Shown here: positions 38,949 to 55,759 of the stretch, piece after piece
Layout of the letters: the number at the start of each line of letters is the position of its first letter
How positions within the stretch are numbered: the stretch's first letter is position 1
Source: an uncultured Flavobacteriales bacterium
GTDB lineage: Bacteria > Bacteroidota > Bacteroidia > Flavobacteriales_D > Crocinitomicaceae
Length of the DNA stretch: 64,000 bases
Reading direction: 5' to 3'
NCBI GenBank assembly: GCA_943789205.1
Contig: CALSTG010000001.1
Location: forward strand, 632,182-696,181
Made by a program: the position numbers and the translations under genes
The notes under the pieces: generated by a model
What the model was told of the DNA's origin: nothing
The model's database searches: none
What the model saw: the letters and a program-made list of their open reading frames with translations, nothing else

Positions 38949-39019
38949 TTTTCTATTTGTTACTTAATTAATAATTTACTTTTTTACAACATTCCTGCGC
39001 AAGCGCAATTTTTTTTTTG

Positions 39020-39091
39020 AGCCAATGACGAGAATTGAACTCGTGACCTCTTCCTTACCAAGGAAGCGCTCTACCCCTGAGCTACACCGGC
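39020..39091 (-). tRNA. tRNA-Thr (anticodon GGT)
   Basis: Folded by hand. The acceptor is GCCGGTG/CATTGGC and the anticodon loop is TTGGTAA. Length is 72 nt. Confidence 0.9.
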
Positions 39092-39107
39092 AGCTCAAAC
39101 GAAAGTG

Positions 39108-39180
39108 AGCGGGAGACGAGGGTCGAACTCGCGACATTCAGCTTGGAAGGCTGACGCTCTACCAACTGAGCTACTCCCGC
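39108..39180 (-). tRNA. tRNA-Gly (anticodon TCC)
   Basis: Folded by hand. The acceptor is GCGGGAG/CTCCCGC and the anticodon loop is CTTCCAA. Length is 73 nt. Confidence 0.92.
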
Positions 39181-39193
39181 TTATTTCTTTCTG

Positions 39194-39275
39194 TGGGGAG
39201 AGCAGGATTCGAACCTGCGAAGGTAAAACCAACAGATTTACAGTCTGTCCTCGTTGGCCGCTTGAGTATCTCCCC
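39194..39275 (-). tRNA. tRNA-Tyr (anticodon GTA)
   Basis: Folded by hand. It has a long variable arm. The acceptor is GGGGAGA/TCTCCCC and the anticodon loop is CTGTAAA. Length is 82 nt. Confidence 0.92.
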
Positions 39276-39286
39276 AACAATATCCG

Positions 39287-39360
39287 AGCCGATGGAGGGA
39301 TTCGAACCCCCGACCAGCTGATTACAAATCAGCTGCTCTGGCCAACTGAGCTACATCGGC
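39287..39360 (-). tRNA. tRNA-Thr (anticodon TGT)
   Basis: Folded by hand. The acceptor is GCCGATG/CATCGGC and the anticodon loop is TTTGTAA. Length is 74 nt. Confidence 0.92.
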
Positions 39361-40661: not shown

Positions 40662-41853
40662 AAGCCAGATAACAAAGCTTGTAAAAAGAAAAAAGTGTCA
40701 TGTTTGAAAAACCAATCTCTAGAAAGAATCTTGATGGTTTTATAAGGCTTCTCATTATCCATCTTAAACCTTTTGAGTCCTTGTGTTTAAAATAGACCTG
40801 AAGCACTCGTAAACGCGCTAAAAGGTCCTTGTTCTGTCCTGAAAGCTCCCATATGAAAATCAGATTATCTAAAGCTTCATCCGTTTTGTTTAAAAACTGT
40901 GTATTCGTATCAAGGTGCTCATTTAAAACAGGATTGTCAATATGCGTTATTAAAACGTTGTTCTTTTCTAATTCAAATCCAAAAAGAGTATCCTCGTGAC
41001 CATAACCACTTATTTTTTCATTAAATGGATAAGCTTTAAATGTTTGTCTTTCAATTAAAAAATTATTGGTTTTAAAAGTTAAATGAGGATGAAGCAAACG
41101 TTCTTTATAGCTTTTACTTTCAACTTTTCTACCGTACTTCCATCGAAGCCGGTAGTATATTCGTGGCGTCTCCTTTTGATATTCGCTCGCGCCAAATAAA
41201 ACGAGAGGCTTATTCGCCTTTATATTTTCCATGTAATTATTTAGGAAATTGTCGCCTATTATCATGGAATCACAATCTAAAAAAAGCAAATATGGCTCAT
41301 TAGTATGTAACAAGAATGTATTTCTAATTCTAGACCTTCCAATATTTTCTTTGAGCTTTATGACCTTGACTGTTTCGGGCAGTGCTTCATATTGGGCCAT
41401 GTACCTTTTAGAGGAAGCGTCATCAATTACTACAATCGAAACCTGATCCACTTGCAATTTAACTTGCTTCAATAATGCATCTACTAGAACGGAGACGTCT
41501 TGATTGTATACAGGAATACATACGGCAAGCATATCGGTAACTAAGCCATTGTGTTTGGCGTACCAAAGTTCATGGGAGGGGCTCTCATTTTTAGGTTCCT
41601 CAATAGCACCAAAATTCTCCTCATATTTCTTCATATTGTCTTGAAGTGCTTTTAAAAAGCGTTTTGCATTTTGAGGGTTCATTATTACTCTAGATCTCAC
41701 CTTTCCTTTAGGCATACCAGGCATAACTTGTATAAAGTCACAAACAACCTCAGAGGGTGAGTGAGTAATGACTGCTAAATTTGAATACACACCCAAAGAA
41801 GTTTCTTCAGACAATTCTATATTCATTTGTTTTTCATCCTGTGGCTTAGACAT
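40636..41853 (-). CDS. DUF3467 domain fused in frame to a family-2 glycosyltransferase
   Basis: Residues ~10-87 (NIELSEETSLGVYSNLAVITHSPSEVVCDFIQVMPGMPKGKVRSRVIMNPQNAKRFLKALQDNMKKYEENFG) match the DUF3467 pattern. From ~108 (MLAVCIPVYNQDV...VVIDDASS...LDCDS) the sequence is GT-A/GT2. I checked that no stop lies between the two parts (41530-41600). Confidence 0.7.
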   Translation of the reverse strand: MSKPQDEKQMNIELSEETSLGVYSNLAVITHSPSEVVCDFIQVMPGMPKGKVRSRVIMNPQNAKRFLKALQDNMKKYEENFGAIEEPKNESPSHELWYAKHNGLVTDMLAVCIPVYNQDVSVLVDALLKQVKLQVDQVSIVVIDDASSKRYMAQYEALPETVKVIKLKENIGRSRIRNTFLLHTNEPYLLFLDCDSMIIGDNFLNNYMENIKANKPLVLFGASEYQKETPRIYYRLRWKYGRKVESKSYKERLLHPHLTFKTNNFLIERQTFKAYPFNEKISGYGHEDTLFGFELEKNNVLITHIDNPVLNEHLDTNTQFLNKTDEALDNLIFIWELSGQNKDLLARLRVLQVYFKHKDSKGLRWIMRSLIKPSRFFLEIGFSNMTLFSFYKLCYLASIPAPKTI

Positions 41854-43195
41854 ATTCTTCTATTTCTTGTTCTTGCTCATTAAACATGATTCCATGTTCA
41901 CTCAATTCAGCAAGAATGGGTTCATAAATTTCTTTGTTTATTGGCAAGGTAACACCTTTTGTTTCAATTTGATTATTTAAAATCATTTTGGCGGCAATTG
42001 CTAGAGGTAAACCAACAGTATTTGCCATTGCTGTATATGTTTGATCTTCTCCAATATTTATCATTGATGATATTATTTTTTTCGACTTTCCTTCATGTTC
42101 GAACTCGAACTCATGATACATCACAAGCATATCCTTATCATCTTCTGCCAAAGACATTTTGCGCACCATAAGCTTCTCTAAAAGCTGAGCTGGTGTCGCA
42201 TCTTTAAATCCAAATTCTTTATCTGAACCAAAAATACCCATCCATTCAAATTGATCATACAGATACATCCTGTCTTCTCTCAAAAAGTACTTAAACTTCT
42301 GTTCTACTGACAAATTTGGAATGTATGGAAGAAACGCATTCAAAAAATCTCTTGGAGTTAATGCTTCCGCATTTGTCATAGGGAAGGAATCATCTGTCAT
42401 TCCCAATTCAATAAAAACATTAAATCCTTTACAAAAATTTGGTCTTCTTAAAGTCCCTCTATATAACGTGGCAATACCATCTAAACCATAAGTATCTTTA
42501 TATGATAAAGAATCTCTGTTAGGATATCCTACGAATTTACCATGACCCTCAATTGTAATTCTGTCTAATCGGTCAAACAACCTGTTGTAAGGAATATATT
42601 TAAACTGATGATTGTCAAGAAACATTGCAGTCCCACCTTTTCCTGCAAGAACAACATTTCTAGGGTTCCAAGTAAATTTATATCGCCATGGATTATCATC
42701 GTACTCCTCTGCAACCAAACCACCACAAAATGATTTAAAGCTATTTAATTTGCCATTAACATCTTTAATATGGTCAATGATTTTCATGGCGCTCATATGG
42801 TCGATTCCGGGATCTACTCCAATCTCATTCATAATAACAATCCCTGCAGCTTTTGCTTGTTGATCCAGGCCTCTCATTTCTTCTGAAATGTACGAAGGTG
42901 TAATTAGATTTTTTTTAAATGTTATGCAATCTTGTGCTATTTCAACATGAAATCGCGCGGGAAGCATTGAAATAACAAGGTCGGCATTTTCAATTTCTCC
43001 GATACGCTCATTGCGATCCAAAGCATTGAATGAAAGCGCCTTAGCTTCAGAAAACCCTTGAACAAGCTTTTCAACACGTTTTAAATCTCTATCAACAATC
43101 CTCAGAGACCAACCTTCTTGTTTGGAAGAGTTTAACAGATATCTAATCATGGAAGAAGCGGAAAGCCCCGCGCCAAGAACAAGTATTGTTTTCAT
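41846..43195 (-). CDS. Saccharopine dehydrogenase family protein (NADP-binding, LYS9-like)
   Basis: It has an N-terminal Rossmann motif ILVLGAGLSASSMIRYLL. Size and pattern are typical of the Bacteroidota saccharopine dehydrogenase family. Confidence 0.8.
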   Translation of the reverse strand: MKTILVLGAGLSASSMIRYLLNSSKQEGWSLRIVDRDLKRVEKLVQGFSEAKALSFNALDRNERIGEIENADLVISMLPARFHVEIAQDCITFKKNLITPSYISEEMRGLDQQAKAAGIVIMNEIGVDPGIDHMSAMKIIDHIKDVNGKLNSFKSFCGGLVAEEYDDNPWRYKFTWNPRNVVLAGKGGTAMFLDNHQFKYIPYNRLFDRLDRITIEGHGKFVGYPNRDSLSYKDTYGLDGIATLYRGTLRRPNFCKGFNVFIELGMTDDSFPMTNAEALTPRDFLNAFLPYIPNLSVEQKFKYFLREDRMYLYDQFEWMGIFGSDKEFGFKDATPAQLLEKLMVRKMSLAEDDKDMLVMYHEFEFEHEGKSKKIISSMINIGEDQTYTAMANTVGLPLAIAAKMILNNQIETKGVTLPINKEIYEPILAELSEHGIMFNEQEQEIEEYV

Positions 43196-43200
43196 TAAAT

Positions 43201-43608
43201 TTATTTTGGTGTTGTAATTAAAGGGCGTAGGGTATTAAAAAGTTCATCTTCATCCCATGGTTTTTCAATGAATTCTTCGAGAAGGTTTTCTGTTTTTAAT
43301 GCATCCACAGAAGATTTATTGGCTTGACCTGAAAGCATCACACATTTTAAATTTTGGTACTTAAGTTTCAGCTTTCGAATCAGCTCAGCACCGGTCATTG
43401 TAGGCATCTGGTAATCCACCATAACGAACATGACATCTATCTGCTCTTCGATAAGCAAATCAATATTTTCTAACGCTTGATCCGGATCGGTAAAATACTC
43501 AATAAGTGTGTAGGATTGATCCATTATTTTAGACAGCTGAAAGCCCAACATTTGTAGGATGTACGGATCATCATCAACACATACAACAGCATATCTCAAT
43601 TCGCTCAT
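43201..43608 (-). CDS. Stand-alone response regulator receiver (no output domain)
   Basis: 135 aa with VVCVDDDP, VDYQMPTMTG (phospho-acceptor Asp), MLSGQAN and KPW. The ATG overlaps the stop of the upstream kinase (ATGA). Confidence 0.9.
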   Translation of the reverse strand: MSELRYAVVCVDDDPYILQMLGFQLSKIMDQSYTLIEYFTDPDQALENIDLLIEEQIDVMFVMVDYQMPTMTGAELIRKLKLKYQNLKCVMLSGQANKSSVDALKTENLLEEFIEKPWDEDELFNTLRPLITTPK

Positions 43609-45905
43609 AATTCAAAAGTAATTATAAATTTTGTCCGTGATTCGTCTGACTCAAGAATAATGTCTGCTTTATGCTCTTTAAGCACATTTTTAACAATACT
43701 CAAACCTAATCCCGATCCGCTTTTCTTACCTTTAGTAGTATAAAATTTTTGAAAGATATTTTCAGCGATTTCCGGTGGAATCTTCGGTCCATTATTTTCA
43801 AAGATGACCTTAAGCTGTTTATCGCTTTTCTCGGCAGAAATACCTAGGAATTTTTCTTTCTGATCCGCCATGGCCTCTAATCCGTTTTTAACAATATTTG
43901 ACCAGAGCTGAAACAGTTTGATATCATAACCCATGAATTCAATAGAAGGATCCACTTCGAACTCAAGATTAACGTTAAGACTAATCTCGTAATTGAAAAC
44001 TCCTAGAACCGTTGAGATATTATCTCGAAGATTAATTTTCTTCTGCGCTACTGCGCTTTCACCTTTTATGAAAGCACGCATGTCCTGAACAACACGAACA
44101 GCCTTATCACTTGACTTTCTAATGGTTTCGAGCTGAGCCATAGCCATTTGAAGCTGATTCATTATTTGAAGGTACTCTTTGGCAAACGGTTTTGAAAGAA
44201 TCATTGAGATTTCATCTTCTTGAGTGATGTTAAATCTGCATTTAACCAATAAGTCGCAAATATCATTCAGTGCATCGGGAACCTCACCATCTATCGAATT
44301 GTTAAGATAATCTATCATCTTAGCTTTCTCTTTTCGCATTTGAAGACCACCTACATACATCTCAATTTTATTATTTTCAACGTGGTTAACAATGTGAGAC
44401 AACTCCTCTTTCGTAAAATCAGAAATAGTTCCGTTAAAAAGGCTATTCAAAATGAAATTAATATTATCCGCTCCCACTCTAATGGTTCCTAATGGAGTAT
44501 TTAAGTCATGTGCTATACCAGCTGATATTTCACCAATTGTCACCAATTTCTCTTGCTCCAGTATAGAACGGGATAAGTCCATATTTTTCTTGGTGTTCTC
44601 CATGACCTTTTTCTCTAAAGATCGATTAATCGAAGCCAACTCGTCCTTGGTGTTTTGAAGCTCCTCGATGTATGAAATTCTATTAAATACATTGAGTAAC
44701 ATTTGAGAATAAATTCTCAATAAATTCTTTTCATCTAATGTAAATGATCTTTTAGTTTTCATGATGTCAAAACCAACAAATCCAATAGCTTTATTGTCTT
44801 GCATCATCGGAATTGAAATCATACTTTTCGTCCCTTCCTCTTGAAGGACTTTAAATATTCTTTTATTATCAATTTTAGAGGTATCAGAAAATTCCACAAA
44901 CTCCCCTTTTTTATGCTTACTCAATGAGTGGGGAATCTGTGAGAAAGGCATTGACTTTAGTTCATCTATTTGGGAATGAATGCCCTCTGCAACCCATTCA
45001 TGAGTAATGGAGCAGATTTCATTCTCAAAATCATACTTAAATACATAAGCTCTATCCGCGGAAGAAAACTGAGCAATCTCAAAAAGAGAAGTGTTAATCA
45101 CCTTATCGATCTGTGAAATAGGCGCATTGATATATTCCGTGGTAATATTTAACATTATCTCTTTAAAGCTGGTCATTTGATCCATCTCTCGTTTTGCCTT
45201 TTCAACAGCAGTAACATTAAAGAAAAAAGCTTGAGAACCATTAAAATTACCTTCTTTTAAAATGGGTCTTGCGCGCCCTTTAAGAACTATTTTAGAATCC
45301 TGACTCGTTATGAATTCACAGCCTAGATTTTCTACTGAAACGCCCTCCATAAGCTTAGGCATAATTAACTCGAACTCCTTAATTGTATCATTTGTAAAAA
45401 AATCAGATATGATCCTACCTTTAACCTCTTCGAGTGATTTAAAAGACATATTCTCTAACCATGCCTCGTTAACGTACGTAATCTGTCCCTTAACATCTAG
45501 CATTTGAATCATTTCTGATGACTTATCTAATAAATCTCGATAGTGCCTTTCCTTATCCTCAATAACCTCTAAAGATTCCTTTAGGTTAAGCGTTCTGTTT
45601 TCAACGAGAGACTCTAGATTAACGACGAGCTTTTCATTTTCATTATTCTTTATATCTAATCTGGATTTCAATCTGTTTATTTTCCTTAATCGTCCGATAA
45701 TAATAACCAGTGAAATGAAAATGAAAGAAAGCAGCGTTATTAATAAATAATTAAAAACCTCTTTACTTTTTATTTTTTCATCTTTTACAGCAATTTCCAA
45801 CTTATGTTCAAGATCGTTTTGCTTATTCTTAATATCATATTCGTATTCCGCTTGTCGCTCAATTAACGCTTTTTGATTTTGTATGAGGTCCAAGCTATCT
45901 TTCAT
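43605..45905 (-). CDS. Sensor histidine kinase (coiled-coil/TM, PAS, GAF, DHp with insertion, HATPase_c)
   Basis: The TM is at LLITLLSFIFISLVIIIG. It has a PAS-like region, a GAF-like region (ADRAYVFKYD...), the H-box GIAHDLNTPLG, the N-box LWSNIVKNGLEAM and the G-box GSGLGLSIVK. Confidence 0.9.
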   Translation of the reverse strand: MKDSLDLIQNQKALIERQAEYEYDIKNKQNDLEHKLEIAVKDEKIKSKEVFNYLLITLLSFIFISLVIIIGRLRKINRLKSRLDIKNNENEKLVVNLESLVENRTLNLKESLEVIEDKERHYRDLLDKSSEMIQMLDVKGQITYVNEAWLENMSFKSLEEVKGRIISDFFTNDTIKEFELIMPKLMEGVSVENLGCEFITSQDSKIVLKGRARPILKEGNFNGSQAFFFNVTAVEKAKREMDQMTSFKEIMLNITTEYINAPISQIDKVINTSLFEIAQFSSADRAYVFKYDFENEICSITHEWVAEGIHSQIDELKSMPFSQIPHSLSKHKKGEFVEFSDTSKIDNKRIFKVLQEEGTKSMISIPMMQDNKAIGFVGFDIMKTKRSFTLDEKNLLRIYSQMLLNVFNRISYIEELQNTKDELASINRSLEKKVMENTKKNMDLSRSILEQEKLVTIGEISAGIAHDLNTPLGTIRVGADNINFILNSLFNGTISDFTKEELSHIVNHVENNKIEMYVGGLQMRKEKAKMIDYLNNSIDGEVPDALNDICDLLVKCRFNITQEDEISMILSKPFAKEYLQIMNQLQMAMAQLETIRKSSDKAVRVVQDMRAFIKGESAVAQKKINLRDNISTVLGVFNYEISLNVNLEFEVDPSIEFMGYDIKLFQLWSNIVKNGLEAMADQKEKFLGISAEKSDKQLKVIFENNGPKIPPEIAENIFQKFYTTKGKKSGSGLGLSIVKNVLKEHKADIILESDESRTKFIITFEL

Positions 45906-47009
45906 CTGAATATGCAGCCTTGATCATTTTTAGTGCCTGCTCCTGAATTATTTTCCTGCTCATAAATTTCACTAAGTAGCTTTGCTGCTTTCTGAATATT
46001 CCGAGGATAACCTATTTCTTGAGAAATTTGAAGGCTCTCTAATGCATTACGTTTAGCTTTAGCCAAATTGTTTCTTTTAAATTCAATCTCGGCAATATTA
46101 ATGGTTGAAATTGCAATACCATCTTTAAAATTTAATGCTCTCCTCAGCGCCAGACTCTTATTATGATAAATCAACGAGCTGTCAGGATTATCAATCAAGT
46201 AAAATCCAGCCAATGAGCTGTAACTATTCGACAAGCTCCTTTTATCCTGGATTTTCATTGCCATTTCTAGTGATTTCAAATAATACTTCTTAGCAAGTTT
46301 TTTATTCCCTTGCTTTTGTTCAACCGAACCAATACTGTTGTAAACACCCGAAATACTCTGCAGTTTGTTTTCTGATTGAAGCATTGGAAGACTTCTTTGA
46401 TAATAATCTAGAGCCCTTGTCAAATCATTTTGCTCTTTATAAATTGATGCTATATTATTAAGAAGCGTGGCAACACCTGTTTTATCATCTATTTCTTTTG
46501 AAATATCTAAACTCTGATGGTAATAATCTAAGGCTTTCGTAATGTTCCCTTGATCATTTAGAACGTAACCGATATTATTTAGAGCTGTAGCAATTTGATA
46601 TTTATCCCCTGTTTTTTGAACGATTATTAGACTTTGCTCCAAATAGTCTAAACATTTATCAATCGCTCCATTCGTCATATAAACAACAGCAATATTATTC
46701 AAGGCACCAGAATAAAGATTTAATAACTCCATTCTTTCTTTTTCTGAGGGTGCTTGTGCAAGCCTCGGCCCAACAATCTCAATTACCTTATTACACAAGG
46801 GGGATCATTGTATCTATATTGGAGACATACAGAATAGAGGACAATTCCAAATAGGAGTTGGCAATTGCCGTATCTGAACTATTCGGATTCTTTATTATTG
46901 CGTTGTAACGATCTATTTTTTCAGTTTCTTCTTCTGAAAATTTTTGAGCACCTACAATAAATGAAAAGCAAACAAAATACAGTAGTATTATTTTCTTTCT
47001 TGTCATCAT
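45902..47009 (-). pseudogene. Secreted TPR-repeat protein interrupted by a +1 frameshift at a C5 run
   Basis: ORF 46791-47009 (MMTRKKIILLYFVCFSFIVGAQ..., signal peptide) stops at TAA 46791-46793. ORF 45902-46798 carries multiple 40-aa TPR units (ALNNIA/GYVY..G...KALDYYQ/HQSL). Removing one C from CCCCC (plus-strand GGGGG at 46799-46803) joins them as ...NIDTMIPLCNKVIEIV.... Confidence 0.65.
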
Positions 47010-47413
47010 GGTCGCCTCTTCTTTAGTAATTCTATACTTCTTTTCAATTCTGATTCTTCCCAAGGTTTTTGCAGAAAAGCCTCCAAAAGGCCATCTCTTT
47101 CTAAAGCCTCTATTTGTGATGAATTTGCCTGGCCTGACAACATGATGCATGGAATTGCTGGATGCGTTTCCTTTAATGCTCTAATAAATTTCGCGCCTGA
47201 AATATGAGGCATCTGATAATCAACAATTACAAAAAGAATTTCTATATCCTCAAATACAAAATCCTTTATATCACGAAGTGCCTTAGCGGGCTCTGTATAT
47301 AATTCAATAATTGTATCTGAGTGATTCAAAAACTTTTCCATCTGAAACCCCAACACTTGCAGAATCAAAGGATCATCATCAATGCATATTACTGCGTGTC
47401 TAAATTGACTCAT
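47006..47413 (-). CDS. Stand-alone response regulator receiver (no output domain)
   Basis: 135 aa. By eye it is roughly half identical to the 43201-43608 protein. It has VICIDDDP, VDYQMPHISG, MLSGQAN and KPW. ATGA overlaps occur at both ends. Confidence 0.9.
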   Translation of the reverse strand: MSQFRHAVICIDDDPLILQVLGFQMEKFLNHSDTIIELYTEPAKALRDIKDFVFEDIEILFVIVDYQMPHISGAKFIRALKETHPAIPCIMLSGQANSSQIEALERDGLLEAFLQKPWEESELKRSIELLKKRRP

Positions 47414-50400
47414 TTATCTCTTTTAAATTTGATTATAAACTTTGTCACATCCTTATCGGACTCCAAAGAAATCTGGCCTTGATGCTCTTCGAGAACATTT
47501 TTGACAATATTTAATCCTAGGCCTGAACCTTTTTTCTTCCCTTTGGTCGTAAAAAATTTATTAAAAATCTTTAATTGGTTTTCTTCTGAAATCGAAGGTC
47601 CATTATTCTCAACAGTAATACTGTAATAATCTGTAGTGATTTTAGAATATAACTTTAGCGTTTTCGGACCTTTTTGATCTTCCATACTTTCCAATGCATT
47701 TTTGATCAGGTTTGACCACAATTGAAATAATCGAACATCATACCCTTTAACATTAATTGATGGGGCAACATCAAAAGTTAAGTCAACAATATTTTCAATT
47801 TTATGACTGAAAATATTAAGTACCGTTCTTATGTTGTTTTTAATATTTACAATACCTGATTTTACATTTCGCTTTTCACGAATAAATAAGCGCAGGTTCT
47901 GCACAACCTCAGATGCTCGATTGCCTGAGGTTGAAATAGTCTGAACAAAAGAGAATACGAGTCGTACATGATAAATCAAGTCTAAAAACAATGTTGGATT
48001 GACTGAGTTTAAAATAAATTGAATCTCCTTTTCATTGTCAATAAGCACTCGAGCTTTCACCATAAGAGATGCAATATTATTGAGTTTTTTATCCGAGAAA
48101 TCAACTTTTTTATTTTTTAGGTAGGATAGTAATGCTTGCTGTTCTCTTCGCATTTGAACACCACCAATGAACAACTCAAAAGAGGAATTATTCGCTCTAT
48201 TAAATGCATATTCGATTTCATCAGGCGTGCATTTTGGGATAAGATTTTTAAACAACACATCCATGGTATAGCTAACATTTTCAGTACCACTTTTTATTGC
48301 GCCAAGTGGTGTATTTAAGTCATGAGCTACACCGGAAGCTAGTTCCCCGATAGTTACCATTTTCTCTTGGTCTCGAAGTGATGAAGCCAGCTCCATATTC
48401 TTTGCTGTTTTCTCTTGAACTAATCTTTCAAGGTTTACATTTAAATCTTGAATGATCTCTTGGTTTTTTAAGCGCTCTGTAATATCAAACTCAACCATCA
48501 TGTATCCCGTATGAAAATTATCAGCATCAAATAATGGCTGGAGATTCAGTGAGACATAATAATTCAATCCACCTTTGGCTATATGTTGCATTTCTACCTC
48601 AACATTTTGTTTGTTTTTTATAGCCTCTATAAGTTTTTTATGCTCGTCAGAATTCTTTTCCTTTGAAATAAACTCTCTTGGATTTTTACCAAGCATTTCA
48701 CTCAAGGTATATCCCGACCTTTCTATCATAGCCTGATTGGCCCAAGTAATTACCATGTCCGTATTTAACATGAGTACACCATTATTTGTGTTTTTGGCGA
48801 CAAGAGATAGCTTTACGTTTTCTTCTTCTGCTATAACTCGCTGAGTAATCTCAGTTCCATATCCAATCACGACACGAACATCCCCATTCTCATCAAATAA
48901 AGGCCCCATTGTTCGATGAATCACATTTCGATTGCCATTTTTGTCAATCAGGTCATCAACCCATATCTCCCTTTTCTTTGATTTCAGAACACGATTGAAA
49001 AGAATTCTCCGTTCATCTGCCATCTCGGTTGAAATACCTTTTAAGCGACAATAATCATAATCGTTTTTTCCAATCATAAATGACCTAATCTTTTCATCCT
49101 TTATCCCTTGGGGATTGATAAACATGTAATTATGATCTTTATCAAAGACAGCAACATCCGCAGGTAAATTATTCAAAATAAATTCATAAAATTCACGTTG
49201 AGATTCAAGCTGATTATTCAATGCTTTCAATGCGCTTTCATTATTTGCATTTCGATCTCTGTACTCCGTTATATCATTAGCATATATATTCAAATATCCC
49301 ATCTCAAAGATCAATGCAATATTCACGGAATAGTAGCGAGATTTGGCTTCAATAAAGAAATGATGAAGTGGCTTTCCACTAGAAATCACCTCACTTAATA
49401 TTTGTTGGAACTTTTCATTTTTCAACTGATCCTGCTCGATCCCAATGTCGTCAAGAAAAGATTTTTCTGAATTGGCATTAAAATAGACCAAATTCAAGTC
49501 GAGATCAAATCTTAATATTGGATTAGGGTTTTCTTCAGGGAATTTAGAAATCGCCTCCATTTCCTTTTGGATACGAACAATTTCCTTGTTTTTTAAAAGA
49601 ATATTTTGAGTAATCGCCTGTGACTCTTCAAGACTTTTTCTCGAGGTTTGTTCTAAAAAGAGGAACTCTGCAATTGTATCGTGTAACGGAAAATCCTTTA
49701 CCGTAACATTGTAATTTTTTAAAGCAAATTTTGAGTTAATAATGGGTGAAGCCCATAAGTAATTATAGCTGCCTATTCGTCTCATCGTAAACTTGAAACG
49801 CTGCTGAATATCTTTAAGGTCAAGAAAATGCATTACACGAAACCACGCATCCCCAAGGTTTAAATCTTCCAAACAATCTTTACGATCGATCATAAAGTAT
49901 TTAAAAATACTATCCCCAACTTTTATTTGAGGAGTAGACTTTTTGAAATTTACTCCTATTTCAAGAATCTCAAATTTGCTATTTAGGACAAAATAATAAG
50001 GCGCACATTCATTTAGGATTTGTGAGGGTTTCCCGTCTATAAATGTCGACGCTGAAAGCAGCCTAGCTAGTTTGTCCACATAAATCTCTAAAGTTTCGAT
50101 CTGAAAAGTGTTCAAGTTTATGGCCTTTTCATCAGCAATTCCCAAAGAACCTTTAACCGATTCATTTACATCTCGAATAGGAAAACTTAAAAACGACTTT
50201 ATCTTTTCTGTTGAGTTGTTTACTGCGATTTGTGAGCCTTGAGCCAATACCTTTTCATGAATTTCATTAAACTGATCAACTGTAGACTTGTCATTTGTTA
50301 ATAGAGTACTATCATCACCTGTTAGACATCTAAAATAAACTTTCGATACGCCACAGAGTTGTTCTGTTAGGCTCAAAACCTTCTCGATTTCGAGCTTGGA

Positions 50401-50439
50401 TTCTTCACTCATATATTGTGGAAAGGATCTTGTTATCAA
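47410..50439 (-). CDS. Cytoplasmic sensor histidine kinase with an HNOBA-like module, three PAS domains, an expanded DHp and HATPase_c
   Basis: I saw no TM segment. The HNOBA-like stretch is at ~aa 141-300 (see findings). PAS signatures are present (ENPNPILRF; LPADVAVFD...; NNGVLMLN...). It has the H-box GVAHDLNTPLG, N-box LWSNLIKNALESM and G-box GSGLGLNIVK. The track start is TTG at 50439, with an alternative ATG at 50412. Confidence 0.9.
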   Translation of the reverse strand: MITRSFPQYMSEESKLEIEKVLSLTEQLCGVSKVYFRCLTGDDSTLLTNDKSTVDQFNEIHEKVLAQGSQIAVNNSTEKIKSFLSFPIRDVNESVKGSLGIADEKAINLNTFQIETLEIYVDKLARLLSASTFIDGKPSQILNECAPYYFVLNSKFEILEIGVNFKKSTPQIKVGDSIFKYFMIDRKDCLEDLNLGDAWFRVMHFLDLKDIQQRFKFTMRRIGSYNYLWASPIINSKFALKNYNVTVKDFPLHDTIAEFLFLEQTSRKSLEESQAITQNILLKNKEIVRIQKEMEAISKFPEENPNPILRFDLDLNLVYFNANSEKSFLDDIGIEQDQLKNEKFQQILSEVISSGKPLHHFFIEAKSRYYSVNIALIFEMGYLNIYANDITEYRDRNANNESALKALNNQLESQREFYEFILNNLPADVAVFDKDHNYMFINPQGIKDEKIRSFMIGKNDYDYCRLKGISTEMADERRILFNRVLKSKKREIWVDDLIDKNGNRNVIHRTMGPLFDENGDVRVVIGYGTEITQRVIAEEENVKLSLVAKNTNNGVLMLNTDMVITWANQAMIERSGYTLSEMLGKNPREFISKEKNSDEHKKLIEAIKNKQNVEVEMQHIAKGGLNYYVSLNLQPLFDADNFHTGYMMVEFDITERLKNQEIIQDLNVNLERLVQEKTAKNMELASSLRDQEKMVTIGELASGVAHDLNTPLGAIKSGTENVSYTMDVLFKNLIPKCTPDEIEYAFNRANNSSFELFIGGVQMRREQQALLSYLKNKKVDFSDKKLNNIASLMVKARVLIDNEKEIQFILNSVNPTLFLDLIYHVRLVFSFVQTISTSGNRASEVVQNLRLFIREKRNVKSGIVNIKNNIRTVLNIFSHKIENIVDLTFDVAPSINVKGYDVRLFQLWSNLIKNALESMEDQKGPKTLKLYSKITTDYYSITVENNGPSISEENQLKIFNKFFTTKGKKKGSGLGLNIVKNVLEEHQGQISLESDKDVTKFIIKFKRDK

Positions 50440-50465
50440 AACTTTGAATAGAATTAAGATTTCAC

Positions 50466-51008
50466 TTACCAGGTGATTTTAAAGCAAAGACCTTTTTCTT
50501 CAGAAGACTCCGAATCCATCTCCTTGATAGCCACAACCATGTCAAAACGTTTACCTAAACCTCTTATAAGACCTTTTAGCATTGGAACCAAGCCTTGTCT
50601 GTGTGACTTATACAAAAGTTCAACGGAGTTTTCAGTTTCGTTCTGAGTTGAAAAAAGAGGTGCTTTAAGCTCTGGCATCATATTGTTAATACGCAAATGC
50701 AACATGTCCAAATTACCAAGAAACTCGACAAATGAAGATCCTGACAAATCTAAAAGGTCACCATATCCTTGCTCTGCCGTATAAAGTATCCAATATTCAC
50801 CAAAAGCCTCCAAAATTGAATTGGCATCGGTTTTTAAAACCTTACTCGCAGCTCCTACCAGATCATAAGTCAATTTGTCTGGATACGGGCTCATTGAAAT
50901 AAAGTCAGATTCTTCAAAACCTGCTTCATCACAAATTACTGCCCAAGTATCAGCACCATGATTTTCGACAACTAAATCTTTAATTGCCTTGTTAACTAGT
51001 CCATACAT
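50466..51008 (-). CDS. hnoX: H-NOX (haem nitric oxide/oxygen-binding, HNOB) domain protein
   Basis: 180 aa with N-terminal MYGLVNKAI, TYDLVGAASKVL, a proximal-His context FLGNLDMLHLRI (His104) and a Y-x-S-x-R motif YKSHR (Tyr133/Ser135/Arg137). Confidence 0.88.
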   Translation of the reverse strand: MYGLVNKAIKDLVVENHGADTWAVICDEAGFEESDFISMSPYPDKLTYDLVGAASKVLKTDANSILEAFGEYWILYTAEQGYGDLLDLSGSSFVEFLGNLDMLHLRINNMMPELKAPLFSTQNETENSVELLYKSHRQGLVPMLKGLIRGLGKRFDMVVAIKEMDSESSEEKGLCFKITW

Positions 51009-51098
51009 ATCTTTTAGATTTTAAATAGCCTTCCAAAGTTAATCAAAGCAAACGGTTTAAAAAATATTTCAAAGTGGCGATAAGACTAGGTTCCGAGG

Positions 51099-51118
51099 AC
51101 TACGTAGTTCTACGTAGA
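51099..51118. promoter_or_regulatory. Two abutting palindromes ACTACGTAGT / TCTACGTAGA (candidate operator)
   Basis: The two 10-bp perfect palindromes share the core CTACGTAG. They lie in the 213-bp divergent region between hnoX (ATG at 51008) and the DinB gene (51222). The second extends to the 12-bp palindrome ttctacgtagaa. Confidence 0.4.
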
Positions 51119-51221
51119 AAGAACTACCATTTTTAACTTAGTTCTCCTTTTAGCCAACTATTTGTTGAAACCACAACGCTTTCTTTGTGTTAAATTTACC
51201 TAGCTAAAATAAAAATTAAAC

Positions 51222-51710
51222 ATGACGAATTTAGATTTTTTCAAAGCTTCTTTCAAAAATGAAATGCAAGCAACGTTAGATACCATAAGCGCCATTCCTG
51301 CGGATCAGTTAGAATATACGCCACACCCTATTAATAGAACAGCTTATGAGATTGCAGAGCACATTGCCGCTCATGTTTATGATTTTAGTATCATTTTACA
51401 TAATGACTCATGTGATGAAAAGCTTTCATTTCCTTTTTCAACACCTGATGAATTGGTTTCTAAAACAGAGCGTCTTTGGAAGGAGGCATCAGACATTTTA
51501 AACAATTTCGAAGTAGAAAAATGGGATAATGAAATGGTCTCCCTGTCTGTTGGCGGAAACCCTTTTGGATCTATGCCTAGATTTCAAATGATGTGGTTCT
51601 TTCTAAATGACATTATTCATCACAGAGGTCAACTTTCTGCATACCTCAGACCAATGGGGGGTAAAAACCCGGCAATTTATGGTTGGAGCGCTGATACCGT
51701 TGCTGTTTAA
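51222..51710 (+). CDS. DinB family protein
   Basis: 162 aa. The four-helix-bundle pattern has conserved His residues (EIAEHIAAH...IIHHRGQL). Confidence 0.7.
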   Translation: MTNLDFFKASFKNEMQATLDTISAIPADQLEYTPHPINRTAYEIAEHIAAHVYDFSIILHNDSCDEKLSFPFSTPDELVSKTERLWKEASDILNNFEVEKWDNEMVSLSVGGNPFGSMPRFQMMWFFLNDIIHHRGQLSAYLRPMGGKNPAIYGWSADTVAV

Positions 51711-51816
51711 ACCGGAAATTCATCCTAACCCACAGAGATTAAATTCTTATTACTGAGCCCAAAAAACGTTTGACTTATTAGGCAGTATCTTCTAGAGTTG
51801 CTTATTTTTGCAATCG

Positions 51817-54800
51817 ATGGTAAAAAAACTGAATAAACTAATCGGTGCGCTTTTTTCTATGAAGGCAATGACCTTAGGGTTGTTTGCTTTTCTAACAGCT
51901 ATTGGACTTGCGACATTTATTGAATCATCTCATGGTATTCAGGCAGCAAAAATCTTAATTTATAACGCCACGTGGTTTGAATTCCTTTTATTCTTCCTTG
52001 GCCTAAATCTCATCGCCAATATTTACCGGTATAAAATGTTTCAGCGTGAAAAAATCGCAGTGCTCTCATTTCACCTTTCTTTCCTCATAATCCTTCTTGG
52101 ATCGGTTGTAACTAGATTCGTTAGTTTTGAAGGCATCATGGTTGTTGGAGAAGGTAAAACGTCTGATTTCATTTACACATCAGACCCTCATATACTTGTA
52201 AAAATTACAGACACCGCAACAAACACGACAGAGATTAAGGGCATCAAAAAGTTCCTTTCAGAATACACGCATAATTTCGGGAATGACTTTAGCACCTCAA
52301 TTGAGCTGCCTAACCACGAAATAAAGATCGATTACATTGACTTTAAATCCAAATGTATTGACTCATTTAAAATCGACAAAAAATTAAAATCCAAGGTCTT
52401 GGACATCGTCACTGAAGGCATGGAATCTAATTACATTGGAGAAAAAGAATCTCTTATGGTAGGAGGCGTGCCGCTCATATTCGGAGAAGATGATATTGAG
52501 ATGGGAATACAAATCAAAGAAGGTGTAAATGGTTTAAAAATAAGTTCCGCTGTTCCCATGCGCTCTTTGGCAATGAGCGAAATGAGGAAAGCACGACAAA
52601 CCGGTCAAAACCCACCCGATTCCCTTTACATTAATTATGAAGAAGGAACGTGGTCTGAATTGAAAAAGACAACACTTTACCAAGTGGGAAACAGTCAATT
52701 TGTGGTAAAGAATATTTTTGACCATGCCAGAAAAGAATTGATTCATTCTGGCAACAAAAATAGAGGTTCTGATTACCTGACTGTCGAGGTAAGCGATACG
52801 CGTTCAAAAAACACCTCCCCAATACAAGTGCAATTAAAAGGCGGTATGGGTGCAGTGCCAGTTCCGAACACCTTCAAATTAAATAATTTAAGGTTACAAT
52901 TAGAGTATGGGGCGATCCGAAAACCAATACCTTATAAAATACATTGCCGGGACTTTCAGCTCGATAAATATCCAGGTTCAGAATCACCATCCTCTTTTGC
53001 TAGTGAAGTAACTTTGATTGATGAAAAAAAGAATAAAAATTGGAACAAGCGTATATTTATGAATCATGTCATGGATTATGAAGGGTATCGTTTTTTCCAA
53101 TCGAGCTATACTTTGGATGACCCGAAAACCCCCGAAAACGAAGAAGGAACTGTCCTGAGTGTTAATTATGACAAATGGGGCACAAATATCACCTATTTAG
53201 GGTATCTATTAATGGCAATTGGAATGATACTCTCCATTATTGCCCCAACAGGTAGATTCAAATCCTTGAATACAAAACTAAAGAAGTTAAAAACGAAGAA
53301 GTTAGGCGTCATAATAGCTGCCGTGACAATAGCTTCATTCAGCTCAGCTCTAAGGGCACAGGATCATCATGACCACTCAGATCATGATCACGATTCGCAT
53401 GAGATTTCCAACGAATCACCTAGTGAAAAAGCAATCATAAATGGAGAATCCTACAAAATTCTCAACGAATCCGGAGTAGAAAGTTTTTCAACACTTCTTG
53501 TACAAAGTTTTGAAGGAAGAATTATTCCAGCCCATACGCTTTGTGACCAACTACTAAGAAAAATACATAGAGATAAAGTTTATGTAACAAATAAGGAAAC
53601 ATACAATGCAGTTCAAACAATCGTAAGTATGCATATGTATCCTGCCTATTGGATGAATCAAAAGATCATTTATGTTGATCGGGCACTTCAAAAAAGACTC
53701 CAACTAGAAAAATACGTCTCCTATCAATCTACTCTAGATTCAACAGGTAATTTCAAATGGGAAAAATTATATGCCGAAAGTTTTCAAAAACTAGAGTCAA
53801 AAAGAGATGAGTTTGATAAAAAAATAATCAAATTCAAAGAGCGTTTCCAGGTGACGTACAGCATCATTTCATGGGAATACATGAAGTTAATACCGATATC
53901 AGAAGACCCCAATAATACATGGTCTTCGCCACTCAACATGGGTATAAGACAATCTACAGATTCCTTAGGTGTAATGGCCGCTTTAAATTACTTTCAATCT
54001 ATTTATGAAGAGGATAGTAAAAATGCCGATACAAATCTTAAAAAGCTTAAATCAATACAACGAAAAGTTGCCAAAAACATTGTGCCTTCTGAACAAATCG
54101 TGGCGCTCGAAATCGCCTATAATAACTTAGATGTTTTTAAGCGTACCTTCAGAGGCTATGCCCTTCTTGGGCTTTTAATGTTGGTTTTATTTTTCATTAA
54201 AATCTTCTTAAACAGAGACAACAAAATATTTGAAATCATTAGGAAGGTATTATTTGTAGGCTTGATAGGTTTCTTTCTTTTTCATGCCTCTGGATTAGCC
54301 ATGAGGTGGCTTATTTCCGGACATGCACCATGGAGTAACGGATACGAAGCCGTCGTGTTTATTGCATGGGTGAGTATGCTCGCTGGATTTTTCTTTTCAA
54401 GGAAAAATGCTGTGGTCATTGCAGGGACCGCAGTCCTTGCAGCTTTGATGATTTTTGTAACCGAAATGAACCTGCTCGATCCCGAAATCACACCACTCCA
54501 GCCCGTACTAAAATCCTATTGGCTCATGATCCATGTTGCGGTTATCACAGGAAGCTATGGCTTTTTGGGGCTTGCCTGTATTTTGAGCTTACTGAACCTC
54601 ATCTTGTATATTACACAAACTAACGGCAATAAAAGTGTGATCAAAAGAAACATCAACGAGCTCACATATGTCTCAGAAATGACGATGACCATAGGGTTGT
54701 TCATGCTTACGATCGGTACCTTTCTTGGAGGGATCTGGGCGAATGAATCTTGGGGGCGATATTGGGGTTGGGATCCAAAGGAAACATGGGCATTGGTTTC

Positions 54801-55089
54801 TGTTTTGGTCTACGCAGTGATTCTGCACCTTCGCTTTATTCCAGGTTTGAATAGTAAATTCACTTTTAACTTAGTCGCATTCTGGGGATATTCAGCAATA
54901 TTGTTTACGTTTTTTGGTGTGAACTTTGTGCTTGTCGGATTACATTCTTATGCCCAGGGAGATGGACTGAGCGACATCCCTAATTGGATATGGTATACTG
55001 CTCTTGTATTTGTAATCTTAAGCATTACGGCTTATTGGAGAAACAAAAAAATGAAAGGGCTGAAATCTTCTATAGATGGATCCAAGTAG
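51817..55089 (+). CDS. ccsBA: Fused cytochrome c biogenesis protein CcsBA (ResB-like plus CcsA)
   Basis: The N-terminal half is ResB-like, with TMs and a large extracytoplasmic domain. The C-terminal half has the CcsA WWD motif WGRYWGWDPKETWALV. I preferred the ATG at 51817 over the track's TTG at 51808. Confidence 0.85.
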   Translation: MVKKLNKLIGALFSMKAMTLGLFAFLTAIGLATFIESSHGIQAAKILIYNATWFEFLLFFLGLNLIANIYRYKMFQREKIAVLSFHLSFLIILLGSVVTRFVSFEGIMVVGEGKTSDFIYTSDPHILVKITDTATNTTEIKGIKKFLSEYTHNFGNDFSTSIELPNHEIKIDYIDFKSKCIDSFKIDKKLKSKVLDIVTEGMESNYIGEKESLMVGGVPLIFGEDDIEMGIQIKEGVNGLKISSAVPMRSLAMSEMRKARQTGQNPPDSLYINYEEGTWSELKKTTLYQVGNSQFVVKNIFDHARKELIHSGNKNRGSDYLTVEVSDTRSKNTSPIQVQLKGGMGAVPVPNTFKLNNLRLQLEYGAIRKPIPYKIHCRDFQLDKYPGSESPSSFASEVTLIDEKKNKNWNKRIFMNHVMDYEGYRFFQSSYTLDDPKTPENEEGTVLSVNYDKWGTNITYLGYLLMAIGMILSIIAPTGRFKSLNTKLKKLKTKKLGVIIAAVTIASFSSALRAQDHHDHSDHDHDSHEISNESPSEKAIINGESYKILNESGVESFSTLLVQSFEGRIIPAHTLCDQLLRKIHRDKVYVTNKETYNAVQTIVSMHMYPAYWMNQKIIYVDRALQKRLQLEKYVSYQSTLDSTGNFKWEKLYAESFQKLESKRDEFDKKIIKFKERFQVTYSIISWEYMKLIPISEDPNNTWSSPLNMGIRQSTDSLGVMAALNYFQSIYEEDSKNADTNLKKLKSIQRKVAKNIVPSEQIVALEIAYNNLDVFKRTFRGYALLGLLMLVLFFIKIFLNRDNKIFEIIRKVLFVGLIGFFLFHASGLAMRWLISGHAPWSNGYEAVVFIAWVSMLAGFFFSRKNAVVIAGTAVLAALMIFVTEMNLLDPEITPLQPVLKSYWLMIHVAVITGSYGFLGLACILSLLNLILYITQTNGNKSVIKRNINELTYVSEMTMTIGLFMLTIGTFLGGIWANESWGRYWGWDPKETWALVSVLVYAVILHLRFIPGLNSKFTFNLVAFWGYSAILFTFFGVNFVLVGLHSYAQGDGLSDIPNWIWYTALVFVILSITAYWRNKKMKGLKSSIDGSK

Positions 55090-55759
55090 TATTCTATATG
55101 AAGACAATCATTTGATTGCCCTCAATAAGAAATCTTCAGAAATTGTACAAGGTGATCGCACCGGAGACACTACAATGCCTGACACCATAAAGGCTTATTT
55201 AAAGAAAAAGTATAACAAGCCAGGAAATGTGTTTTGCGGCGTGATCCATCGATTAGATAGACCCACAAGTGGCGTTATTTTATTTGCGCGAACAAGCAAA
55301 GGGTTAGAGCGCATGAACAAACAATTTAGAGATAAAGAAACTGCTAAAACCTATTGGGCAATTCTCGAAAACAAGCCACCAAACGCCAATGGAACGCTTA
55401 TTAATTATTTAAAAAAGAACGAAAAACAAAATAAAAGCTACGTAACATCTAAGGAAACAAAAGGAGCGAAAGAAGCGATACTAAACTACCGCCTGCTGTC
55501 CTCATCTGAACGATACCACCTTGTAGAAATAAAGCTTGAAACAGGCAGGCATCACCAAATCAGAACTCAGTTTTCTAAAATCGGTTGCTGCATAAAAGGA
55601 GATTTAAAATATGGTGCAAAAAGATCAAACAATGACGGTTCTATCTGTTTACATGCGAGAAAACTAGATTTTAATCACCCAACGACAAAGGAACCTATTT
55701 CGATTAAGGCTCCATTGCCTCAAAACACATTCTGGAACCTTTTTAAATCTATAGCTTAG
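55076..55759 (+). CDS. RluA family pseudouridine synthase
   Basis: It has the catalytic motif HRLDRPTSGVILFART and TGRHHQIR. Confidence 0.88.
   Translation: MDPSSILYEDNHLIALNKKSSEIVQGDRTGDTTMPDTIKAYLKKKYNKPGNVFCGVIHRLDRPTSGVILFARTSKGLERMNKQFRDKETAKTYWAILENKPPNANGTLINYLKKNEKQNKSYVTSKETKGAKEAILNYRLLSSSERYHLVEIKLETGRHHQIRTQFSKIGCCIKGDLKYGAKRSNNDGSICLHARKLDFNHPTTKEPISIKAPLPQNTFWNLFKSIA

Follow-up and report, generated by a model that had tools for sequence, protein, structure and literature searches.

A standalone H-NOX gene beside a histidine kinase with a divergent HNOBA module in Bacteroidota

H-NOX proteins and their partners

In animal soluble guanylate cyclase (sGC) the H-NOX domain is covalently attached and lies packed against the PAS and coiled-coil domains, and the relay of the heme-ligand signal has been largely, though not fully, settled by cryo-EM. 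The parts of the alpha1/beta1 enzyme (6JT0, 6JT2, 8HBF and 6PAS) follow one another in the order H-NOX, PAS domain of the H-NOX-associated (HNOBA) region, coiled coil and catalytic output. The same order is found at the bacterial locus described here, and a D-[FI]-P-x-H-D junction motif is common to sGC and the kinase of that locus, HK1. However, H-NOX is a separate polypeptide here and is fused N-terminal to HNOBA in sGC; the output of HK1, with three more PAS domains ahead of it, is a histidine kinase and not a class III cyclase; and HK1 is presumably a homodimer (sGC is an alpha/beta heterodimer).

The split H-NOX/HNOBA layout has been recognised as a conserved bacterial design since 2003, as later papers cite the work (Iyer et al. 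2003). A histidine-kinase operon has been given as the origin of an H-NOX of Nostoc sp. (PMC2576301), and the H-NOXA/PAS domain that an N. punctiforme signal-transduction histidine kinase carries has been crystallised (PDB 2P04 and 2P08; Ma et al. 2008, as reported in PMC2576301 and PMC2828450). The Nostoc pair resembles the one described here: its H-NOX is standalone and belongs to the same subfamily (E 2.8e-51), and the HNOBA PAS domain of its kinase is the sole PDB sequence match to HK1. HK1 differs from the Nostoc kinase in the GAF-like domain ahead of its HNOBA, in a PAS core that has diverged at the FPFH and KGQ motifs, in a long DHp insertion in its kinase core and in coming from another phylum (Bacteroidota). 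We know of no biochemical demonstration that the Nostoc H-NOX/kinase pair signals.

In the HnoX/HnoK systems of Shewanella, Vibrio and Caulobacter, as here, an H-NOX gene lies beside that for a cytoplasmic histidine kinase, and NO binding is expected to alter the interaction of H-NOX with the kinase (PMC10746521). The downstream regulators of this type include c-di-GMP enzymes, whereas both regulators at the present locus are receiver-only. HnoK-type kinases are short and, to our knowledge, not annotated with HNOBA.

A search of the literature on H-NOX in Bacteroidetes/Flavobacteria found no description of a GAF-HNOBA-PAS-kinase clade. What is new here is such a clade, divergent and from Bacteroidota, whose kinases are publicly annotated only as "PAS domain S-box protein" and the H-NOX gene as "hypothetical protein".

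The five-gene cassette

The window, a 64,000-nucleotide stretch of contig CALSTG010000001.1 from a marine Crocinitomicaceae-like (Flavobacteriales) genome, contains a five-gene two-component cassette in the order H-NOX, HK1, RR1, HK2, RR2, all on the minus strand. The first gene (50466–51008) encodes a standalone H-NOX of 180 aa, predicted to be of the NO/CO-sensor type. Its product matches PF07700 over nearly the whole profile (E 4.3e-47, positions 1–162 of 163), the Alr2278 H-NOX of Nostoc (4iah) with E 2.8e-51 and human sGC beta1 with E 2.6e-27. The proximal His104, Pro117 and the heme-propionate motif Y133-x-S135-x-R137 are present; H104, P117, Y133 and R137 show no variation among 30 H-NOX sequences of partner loci. 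The distal pocket, by comparison with Nostoc structures, is presumably formed by Ile9, Trp73 and Met143 and lacks a hydrogen-bonding Tyr. The protein is thus classed from its sequence as an H-NOX of the Nostoc/sGC type that retains its heme-ligating residues, and is predicted to be of the NO-sensing, non-O2-binding type.

The HK1 gene (47410–50439) follows after a gap of 26–53 nt, 26 nt being the distance to the start of its open reading frame. The product is of 1009 aa from that TTG or 1000 aa from the ATG at 50412, which is the start in public gene calls (L001–L006), and its exact sequence was found in NCBI/JGI/ENA. RR1 (47006–47413) encodes a receiver-only response regulator of 135 aa (Response_reg, E 3.6e-15) with the motifs DDD at 12–14, the phospho-acceptor Asp65, Ser93 and Lys116; stop and start codons overlap at both the HK1/RR1 and the RR1/HK2 boundary. 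Of 58 Bacteroidota loci, 48 have a receiver gene downstream of that for the kinase. HK2 (43605–47009) encodes a paralogous TPR-PAS-GAF histidine kinase, assigned by Pfam on its pieces: it is intact, at 1133 aa, in the near-identical contigs L001–L006 and broken into three open reading frames in the window by three single-base insertions relative to L001 (at 46796, 45939 and 45922). RR2 (43201–43608) is again a receiver-only response regulator of 135 aa (Response_reg, E 1.8e-15), 50% identical to RR1 over 127 aa (BLASTP). A promoter and terminator scan of the operon gave counts not above those of shuffled controls, and Rfam and ARAGORN over the window found only five tRNAs, which lie elsewhere than the operon.

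Domain order of HK1

HK1 is a soluble, cytoplasmic sensor histidine kinase (Pfam PAS_4, HisKA, HATPase_c and HNOBA) with the domain order GAF-like, HNOBA PAS, signalling helix, three PAS, DHp and catalytic. An earlier preliminary description of this DNA had given the order as HNOBA, three PAS domains and kinase; a full-length model bears out the three additional PAS domains ahead of the kinase core, and what had been missed is a shortened, degenerate GAF-like domain (~12–135) preceding HNOBA.

That domain (residues 1–135; 50035–50439) is assigned from the full-length model and from the GAF domains of relatives. The model has an alpha/beta domain here, with a helix at 12–29, five strands and a helix at 111–135, at a pLDDT of ~50–85. 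Pfam GAF has no match to HK1 at E<=1, but when the N-terminal 170 aa of close relatives are considered, it is found at the corresponding position in 23 of 34 aligned proteins, and an HMM built from these GAF domains matches HK1 residues 76–129 with 17.7 bits. Fusion of H-NOX at the N-termini of relatives was considered for the same region and rejected, the 23 GAF matches standing against a fused H-NOX in one protein only, the bacterial relative P0120. Another relative, P0004, is a kinase without the HNOBA PAS core.

The HNOBA/H-NOXA PAS core occupies residues 138–243 (49711–50028; AlphaFold2, Foldseek, phmmer and hhalign). It is followed by the junction motif D-F-P-L-H-D (249–254) and directly by the signalling helix or coiled coil at residues 255–299 (49543–49677), placed by a single helix in the model, by Pfam HNOBA and by alignment with sGC beta1; a coiled coil had been proposed at this position. 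The stretch 49540–50019 corresponds exactly to residues 141–300, and the three peptides quoted earlier from it map to residues 144–162, 227–265 and 269–295. A motif conserved in relatives, FPEENPNPILR (300–310), introduces the second PAS-like domain (308–389; 49273–49518), which is placed by the secondary structure of the full-length model. A third PAS domain (428–530; 48850–49158) is supported by a second stretch of PAS_4 and the model, and a fourth (554–652; 48484–48780) by PAS_4/PAS_9/PAS at 549–656 and the model.

The linker helix and DHp domain (residues 654–858; 47866–48480) are placed by the model and by a Pfam HisKA match limited to residues 698–720. The phospho-acceptor, His706, is encoded at 48322–48324 within GVAHDLNTPL (703–712). 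The two DHp helices of the model (654–736 and 815–858) are separated by four short helices, in what is predicted to be a helical insertion of ~75 aa (739–810). The catalytic ATP-binding domain (862–1006; 47422–47856; HATPase_c, E 1.5e-19) has an N box NLIKNA at 910–915, a G1 box NNGPSI at 945–950 and a G2 box GSGLGL at 971–976, and the catalytic motifs are intact in both the HK1 kinase and the RR1 receiver. Since no class III nucleotide cyclase family matched HK1 in Pfam and its output is HisKA/HATPase_c, HK1 is not an sGC; it carries only the sGC transducer module.

Identity of the HNOBA module

The preliminary description had aligned residues ~141–300 by eye with the sGC-type HNOBA region. 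That assignment is now borne out by the family HMM, by the comparison of profiles, by the predicted fold and by gene order, and residues ~138–299 are almost certainly a true homologue of the HNOBA/H-NOXA module, PAS core and signalling helix together. PF07701 matches whole HK1 with 27.6 bits (E 2.5e-6; gathering cut-off 23.4) and the 141–300 fragment with 31.5 bits (E 1.6e-7). On the fragment it is the sole Pfam family to match, with no match to generic PAS families.

The best stretch of the PF07701 match is only 50 residues long (HK1 230–279, profile positions 133–182 of 216, in the C-terminal quarter of the profile) and lies at the PAS/helix junction. Together with marginal E-values to solved structures, this could point to a generic PAS domain and a generic signalling helix, with the Pfam match coming from the helix junction only. 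The PAS core of HK1 is indeed strongly diverged, with PYYF in place of sGC FPFH and QRFKF in place of LKGQM (the KGQ strand being lost), and this is so across the whole Bacteroidota clade; it is because of the divergence at these two motifs that Pfam sees only the C-terminal part of the module. The junction signature D-[FI]-[PA]-x-H-D is retained, as DFPLHD. By HMMER the HK1 helix aligns with the junction and coiled coil of the human sGC beta1 chain (6jt0_B), in which the sGC strings given in the preliminary description do occur, from residues 215 and 305.

Direct searches of solved sequences gave little signal. Against all PDB sequences, phmmer with HK1 residues 1–330 had a sole, weak match, the H-NOXA of the Nostoc punctiforme kinase (2p08/2p04; E 0.07, residues 140–208), and a profile built from the four closest sequences found nothing relevant in the PDB. 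A Bacteroidota-only profile matches the 2p08 PAS core with 19.4 bits (E 0.007 at PDB size). [An earlier profile that reached E 1.6e-12 to 2p08 was set aside as not valid for the Bacteroidota clade, the score coming mostly from one cyanobacterial-type row, without which it falls to the values just given.] However, when the profile of the four closest relatives is compared by hhalign with 19 canonical bacterial HNOBA modules, the match has a probability of 99.8% (E 3.5e-30) and extends over 160 columns that include the whole PAS core.

The predicted fold is of the same import. In an AlphaFold2 model of residues 134–310 (pLDDT 89), a PAS core of five strands is followed by one 44-residue helix (model residues 122–165). 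The top 22 Foldseek matches to this model in the PDB are all sGC alpha/beta chains or Nostoc H-NOXA (2p08/2p04/4gj4), and phytochrome and PYP PAS domains rank below every one of the sGC/H-NOXA structures. The superposition on 2p08_A has a target-normalised TM of 0.80 and an rmsd of 2.7 A; those on sGC chains extend over 170–190 columns spanning both PAS and coiled coil, at 13–18% identity. The module is accordingly modelled as a PAS domain plus a long signalling helix, like sGC PAS-CC and Nostoc H-NOXA.

The relatives retrieved by profile speak to the same point. In an exhaustive search with the profile of the four closest sequences, matches cover profile positions ~7–160, which is almost the whole module. 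Among these relatives, 88 of the canonical type, those with the module at the N-terminus, were scanned, and Pfam HNOBA was found in 82 of them (best E 7.7e-36). With these, the fold search and the hhalign comparison all against it, a generic PAS origin for residues 141–300 is effectively refuted, its likelihood being very slight.

Gene order across bacteria

Loci with enough flank to be informative number 51 in Bacteroidota, and in 50 of them the gene for the HNOBA protein has a separate, same-strand H-NOX gene directly upstream. For the canonical type, whose loci span 34–70% GC, the figure is 53 of 56, and one more has H-NOX downstream. The order is kept in ~103 of 107 informative loci of the two groups together, with tight or overlapping spacing; standalone H-NOX followed by HNOBA protein is thus an almost invariant arrangement across two deeply divergent bacterial groups. 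This near-universal adjacency of separate H-NOX genes supports the earlier proposal that H-NOX acts in trans, as a separate protein.

HATPase_c, marking histidine kinases, is present in 69 of the 88 canonical-type proteins, and their outputs vary (kinase, GGDEF, SpoIIE and EAL), with no GAF. At one orthologous locus, L010, the HNOBA kinase is kept with no H-NOX gene, so the kinase can persist without H-NOX.

The layout had been thought unusual in bacteria. However, the exhaustive search yielded 271 clusters at 50% identity at E<=1e-3 and 56 at E<=1e-10, the 271 coming from a narrow profile, and with HNOBA kinases in hundreds of clusters, a standalone H-NOX directly upstream in nearly all sampled loci and, in Nostoc, earlier descriptions of both an H-NOX gene within a histidine-kinase operon and a kinase bearing H-NOXA, the split layout is neither rare nor new. 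What holds of the proposed split analogue of the sGC sensor/transducer is the likeness in sequence, fold and gene order, and not the rarity or novelty.

Proposed mode of action

That H-NOX regulates HK1 is likely. That it does so via the HNOBA/helix unit is somewhat favoured over other routes, and a cassette with in-trans H-NOX control of HK1 through HNOBA and helix is, on balance, the best explanation of the locus as a whole. NO-dependent control through HNOBA is what we infer from these data. Ferrous H-NOX would dock in trans on the dimeric unit of HNOBA PAS and signalling helix, much as the covalently attached H-NOX does in sGC. Binding of NO (or CO) to the heme would alter this contact, and the change would be passed along the signalling helix, through the three PAS domains and into the DHp. 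There it would alter autophosphorylation of His706 and, with it, the transfer of phosphate to Asp65 of RR1. If the pair behaves like the H-NOX/kinase pairs already characterised, the NO-bound form of H-NOX would most likely inhibit the kinase.

Adjacency speaks for functional linkage of H-NOX and HK1 and does not identify the interface, which could instead be the GAF-like domain or the kinase core. As it is mainly for dimerisation that the PAS domain of sGC and of the Nostoc kinase fragment has been documented (PMC2828450, PMC2904703), the HNOBA homologue may only dimerise or transmit, with H-NOX contacting the GAF-like domain or the DHp/catalytic core, where the unusual ~75 aa insertion could be the docking site. 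There is perhaps a minor chance of this. The canonical-type partners are equally H-NOX-linked and have no GAF, which makes HNOBA the one N-terminal element that every H-NOX-linked partner has; and since their outputs vary, HNOBA plus helix is the sole element shared. HK2 also argues against contact at the kinase core: its core is 44% identical to that of HK1 and has the same insertion, but it is without HNOBA and no H-NOX gene precedes it. With pairing close to obligatory wherever bacterial HNOBA occurs, the strongest candidate for the place where H-NOX docks is HNOBA.

The two inputs might instead be independent, the HNOBA PAS itself sensing a ligand or cofactor and H-NOX having another target or only buffering NO. 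Ligand binding is common among PAS domains, several other domains of HK1 could also receive input and L010 retains its kinase without H-NOX. However, we know of no ligand for any H-NOXA/sGC PAS domain, and it is difficult to account for an order kept across phyla with such spacing unless the two are directly coupled in function, which makes independence quite improbable.

A broader proposal, to be held tentatively and at slightly less than even chances, is that throughout bacteria HNOBA serves as the receiver module dedicated to standalone H-NOX, the contact between them reproducing the sGC relay, and that the Bacteroidota GAF-HNOBA-PAS3-kinase clade is an undescribed, genetically separable version that adds a second (GAF) input. 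If so, L010 (no H-NOX) and P0004 would be natural dissection variants of the relay. The importance of the locus is modest and the known picture of H-NOX signalling is unchanged by it. Abundant Bacteroidota of marine and fresh waters have the sGC sensor-transducer pair, H-NOX and HNOBA/coiled coil, in the form of two separate proteins, providing simple soluble two-protein systems for studying how a heme-ligand signal is relayed through a PAS/helix unit. NO-signalling capacity in these ecologically important lineages is under-reported because of the uninformative public annotation of both genes.

A closely packed H-NOX cassette

On the minus strand of the window lie, closely packed, the genes for an H-NOX protein (50466-51008, 180 aa), the histidine kinase HK1 (47410-50439; 1009 aa counted from TTG, with public gene calls starting at an ATG 9 codons later), the receiver-only regulator RR1 (47006-47413, 135 aa), a second kinase, HK2, of TPR-PAS-GAF type (43605-47009), and a second receiver-only regulator, RR2 (43201-43608). 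Between the genes for H-NOX and HK1 lie 26-53 nt, and stop and start codons overlap at the HK1/RR1 and RR1/HK2 junctions. In public annotation the H-NOX is a 'hypothetical protein', and HK1 goes no further than 'PAS domain S-box-containing protein'. No NO-metabolism gene was identified within the annotated stretch 41846-55759. A marine metagenome contig matches the window at 99.8% identity over 12.5 kb; a MAG contig labelled Crocinitomicaceae bacterium is 87.5% identical over 14.6 kb. The identical H-NOX protein is found on 86 contigs, the longest of 2.21 Mb, several of them from 'KOPF15' ENA metagenome assemblies.

Identity of the module in HK1

The preliminary description placed a soluble guanylate cyclase (sGC)-type HNOBA module at 49540-50019, which is exactly HK1 residues 141-300; the peptides quoted lie at 144-162, 227-265 and 269-295. 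The sGC beta1 peptides that it set beside them are genuine and, in the 22-sequence profile alignment to sGC beta1, fall where they had been placed. That residues ~138-299 are HNOBA is confirmed. Pfam PF07701 matches whole HK1 at 27.6 bits (gathering score 23.4) and the fragment 141-300, which no other Pfam family matches, at 31.5 bits; its best stretch is limited to residues 230-279, profile positions 133-182 of 216. When residues 1-330 were compared with all PDB sequences by phmmer, the sole match, a weak one (E 0.07, residues 140-208), was the H-NOXA/PAS domain of a Nostoc punctiforme signal-transduction histidine kinase. The four nearest sequences, taken as a profile, found nothing relevant in PDB; in an exhaustive search of 1.84 billion representative proteins this profile picked up 271 clusters at E<=1e-3, of which 56 reach E<=1e-10, with alignments covering almost the entire module. 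Compared profile to profile, the closest-relative alignment and 19 canonical modules (bacterial proteins with HNOBA at the N-terminus) match at 99.8% probability and E 3.5e-30 over 160 columns that take in PAS core and helix. A 22-sequence profile matched the Nostoc H-NOXA domain (2p08) at E 1.6e-12, and for sGC beta1/alpha1 E was 1e-3 to 7e-3; it includes one cyanobacterial-type row, on removal of which the score against the 2p08 sequence drops to 19.4 bits, E 0.007.

Residues 134-310 were modelled with AlphaFold2 on that same alignment, cyanobacterial-type row included; the model has mean pLDDT 89 and consists of a five-stranded PAS core followed by a single 44-residue helix, the coiled coil anticipated from the sequence. 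The top 22 Foldseek matches in PDB are nothing but sGC alpha/beta chains, Nostoc H-NOXA and the Manduca sGC alpha PAS. Human and Manduca sGC chains align over 164-193 columns, and therefore PAS plus coiled coil are covered; the Nostoc H-NOXA domain superposes with target-normalised TM 0.80 and rmsd 2.7 A. Phytochrome, PYP and other PAS domains rank only after these, starting at E about 1e-3, so the region does not score as just a generic PAS. A non-specific resemblance to HNOBA is thus effectively refuted and highly improbable, given this ranking, the profile-profile result and the Pfam HNOBA matches in 82 of 88 scanned distant relatives (best E 7.7e-36).

Architecture of HK1 and its relatives

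The full-length HK1 model has pLDDT 80 and pTM 0.31, so that its local structure alone is meaningful. An alpha/beta domain (residues 12-135) precedes the HNOBA PAS (138-243) and helix (255-299). Then come, in the PAS3-kinase order that had been read from the sequence, three further PAS domains (308-389, 428-530, 554-652), a long helix that runs into the DHp, which holds His706, a helical insertion of ~75 residues in four helices (739-810) that separates the first DHp helix from the second (815-858), and the ATP-binding domain (862-1006). Pfam GAF has no match in the HK1 N-terminal domain. Among 34 aligned relatives, 23 show Pfam GAF at the corresponding place, and HK1 residues 76-129 match an HMM made from these GAFs; the domain is probably a degenerate GAF-like one.

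The 34 aligned close relatives run from an N-terminal GAF through the module and PAS domains to HisKA/HATPase_c. In distant relatives the module is at the extreme N-terminus, with the consensus FPFH ... KGQ ... DFAxHD, which is the sGC signature; HATPase_c occurs in 69 of the 88 scanned, and GGDEF, SpoIIE or EAL in others. Guanylate cyclase is absent from the 25 most frequent families among these 88.

In P0004, a TARA metagenome protein aligned with the close relatives, the GAF-like N-terminus runs nearly straight into the signalling helix and the PAS domain with FPGENPNPILR. The HNOBA PAS core appears missing, which suggests that the module can be lost in one piece.

The H-NOX partner and its linkage

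Pfam PF07700 matches the upstream protein end to end (E 4.3e-47). Nearest to it are the crystallised Nostoc Alr2278 H-NOX (E 2.8e-51) and then sGC beta1 (E 2.6e-27); Shewanella-type H-NOX is much more remote (E about 1e-8). It has the proximal His104, Pro117 and a Y133-x-S-x-R137 motif, and His104, Pro117, Tyr133 and Arg137 are invariant among 30 H-NOX proteins of partner loci.

When one genome per species was scanned, 58 loci with genes for close relatives of the module came up. Their record titles are nearly all of Bacteroidota taxa, mostly aquatic MAGs (Crocinitomicaceae, Cryomorphaceae, Lishizhenia, Cyclobacteriaceae, Cytophagaceae and unclassified Bacteroidia); two are titled 'uncultured Akkermansia sp.' A receiver gene is 3′ of the kinase in 48 of the 58. 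Of the 51 with enough upstream sequence, 50 have a separate H-NOX ORF directly before the kinase gene, on its strand. The sole exception among these 51 informative Bacteroidota loci, L010 (7536-10610, Flavobacteriales MAG ERR599006_bin.43), has an orthologous HNOBA kinase with a 57% identical module, keeps its DinB and ResB neighbours and lacks both the H-NOX upstream and RR1 downstream; it is effectively a natural H-NOX-less variant. [In the window these neighbours, a DinB-family gene (51222-51710) and a gene for a fused ResB/CcsA-type cytochrome c biogenesis protein (51808-55089, 1093 aa), are on the plus strand, divergent from the H-NOX gene; they are kept in the closest relatives, L010 among them.]

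Scanning metagenomes with canonical modules turned up 62 loci of 34-70% GC, with a separate H-NOX ORF directly upstream in 53, downstream in 1 and absent in 2 (6 were too short). No H-NOX-HNOBA fusion occurs among the surveyed gene-order loci. Canonical pairs are found on contigs of 60-70% GC (L104-L107, L110-L112, L119, L122-L124) and also of 34-50% GC, and so the pairing reaches well beyond cyanobacteria and Bacteroidota.

One bacterial protein, P0120 (996 aa), has H-NOX directly fused to HNOBA and a histidine kinase, the sole such case among 155 proteins examined; because of this fusion its arrangement is sGC-like (covalent), with kinase output.

Proposed coupling in trans

Canonical partners are without GAF and their outputs vary, so HNOBA plus helix is the sole element that every H-NOX-linked partner shares. 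The case for it as the coupling module rests mainly on this. That HNOBA merely dimerises and transmits, with H-NOX docking elsewhere, is the less probable reading, at perhaps one chance in a few; that HNOBA senses a ligand of its own is improbable. With HNOBA and helix as the coupling module, ferrous H-NOX would, by analogy with sGC, whose fused H-NOX packs on PAS and coiled-coil domains, bind the dimeric HNOBA/helix unit in trans. NO binding would alter this contact, and the helix and the three PAS domains would relay the signal to DHp, affecting both His706 autophosphorylation and the transfer of the phosphoryl group to Asp65 in RR1. As in characterised H-NOX/kinase pairs, the NO-bound form would most probably inhibit the kinase. 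H-NOX systems that have been characterised show a change, on NO binding, in how H-NOX interacts with its effector kinase or c-di-GMP enzyme (PMC10746521).

Relation to known systems

One Nostoc sp. H-NOX is said to be 'from a histidine kinase operon', and in crystals the H-NOXA domain of a kinase from N. punctiforme forms a PAS dimer (PMC2576301, PMC2828450). The locus in the window therefore belongs to a known kind of system. Recognition of the split layout as a bacterial design dates from 2003, as cited in PMC2904703 and PMC1592074. The locus differs from the Nostoc systems in its phylum, in the GAF or GAF-like domain before HNOBA, in a PAS core so diverged that Pfam detects the junction region alone, and in the long DHp insertion of its kinase core. 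No description of H-NOX/HNOBA kinases in Bacteroidota was found in the literature searched. The locus represents a new and divergent clade within a known arrangement, of low to moderate novelty. Sequence, fold and synteny support the preliminary interpretation; its split analogue of sGC holds as to the separate upstream H-NOX, but has its precedent in Nostoc.

Other features of the window

The kinase core of HK1 (residues 654-858, window 47866-48480) is unusual, as is that of HK2: ~190 residues separate H box and N box, and Pfam HisKA matches with its first 23 positions alone. The two cores are 44% identical.

In near-identical metagenome contigs HK2 is an intact gene (1133 aa). In the window it is split into three ORFs by single-base insertions at 46796, 45939 and 45922, and 16 of the 19 SNPs relative to L001, a near-identical contig, are clustered in 45708-46670. 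The split gene could be a pseudogene, or reflect strain heterogeneity or consensus error.

Five clustered tRNA genes (Trp, Thr, Gly, Tyr, Thr) at 37635-39360 are an ordinary housekeeping context; ORFs nearby look, by size, like putative tuf, rpoB/rpoC and a cell-division/murein cluster.
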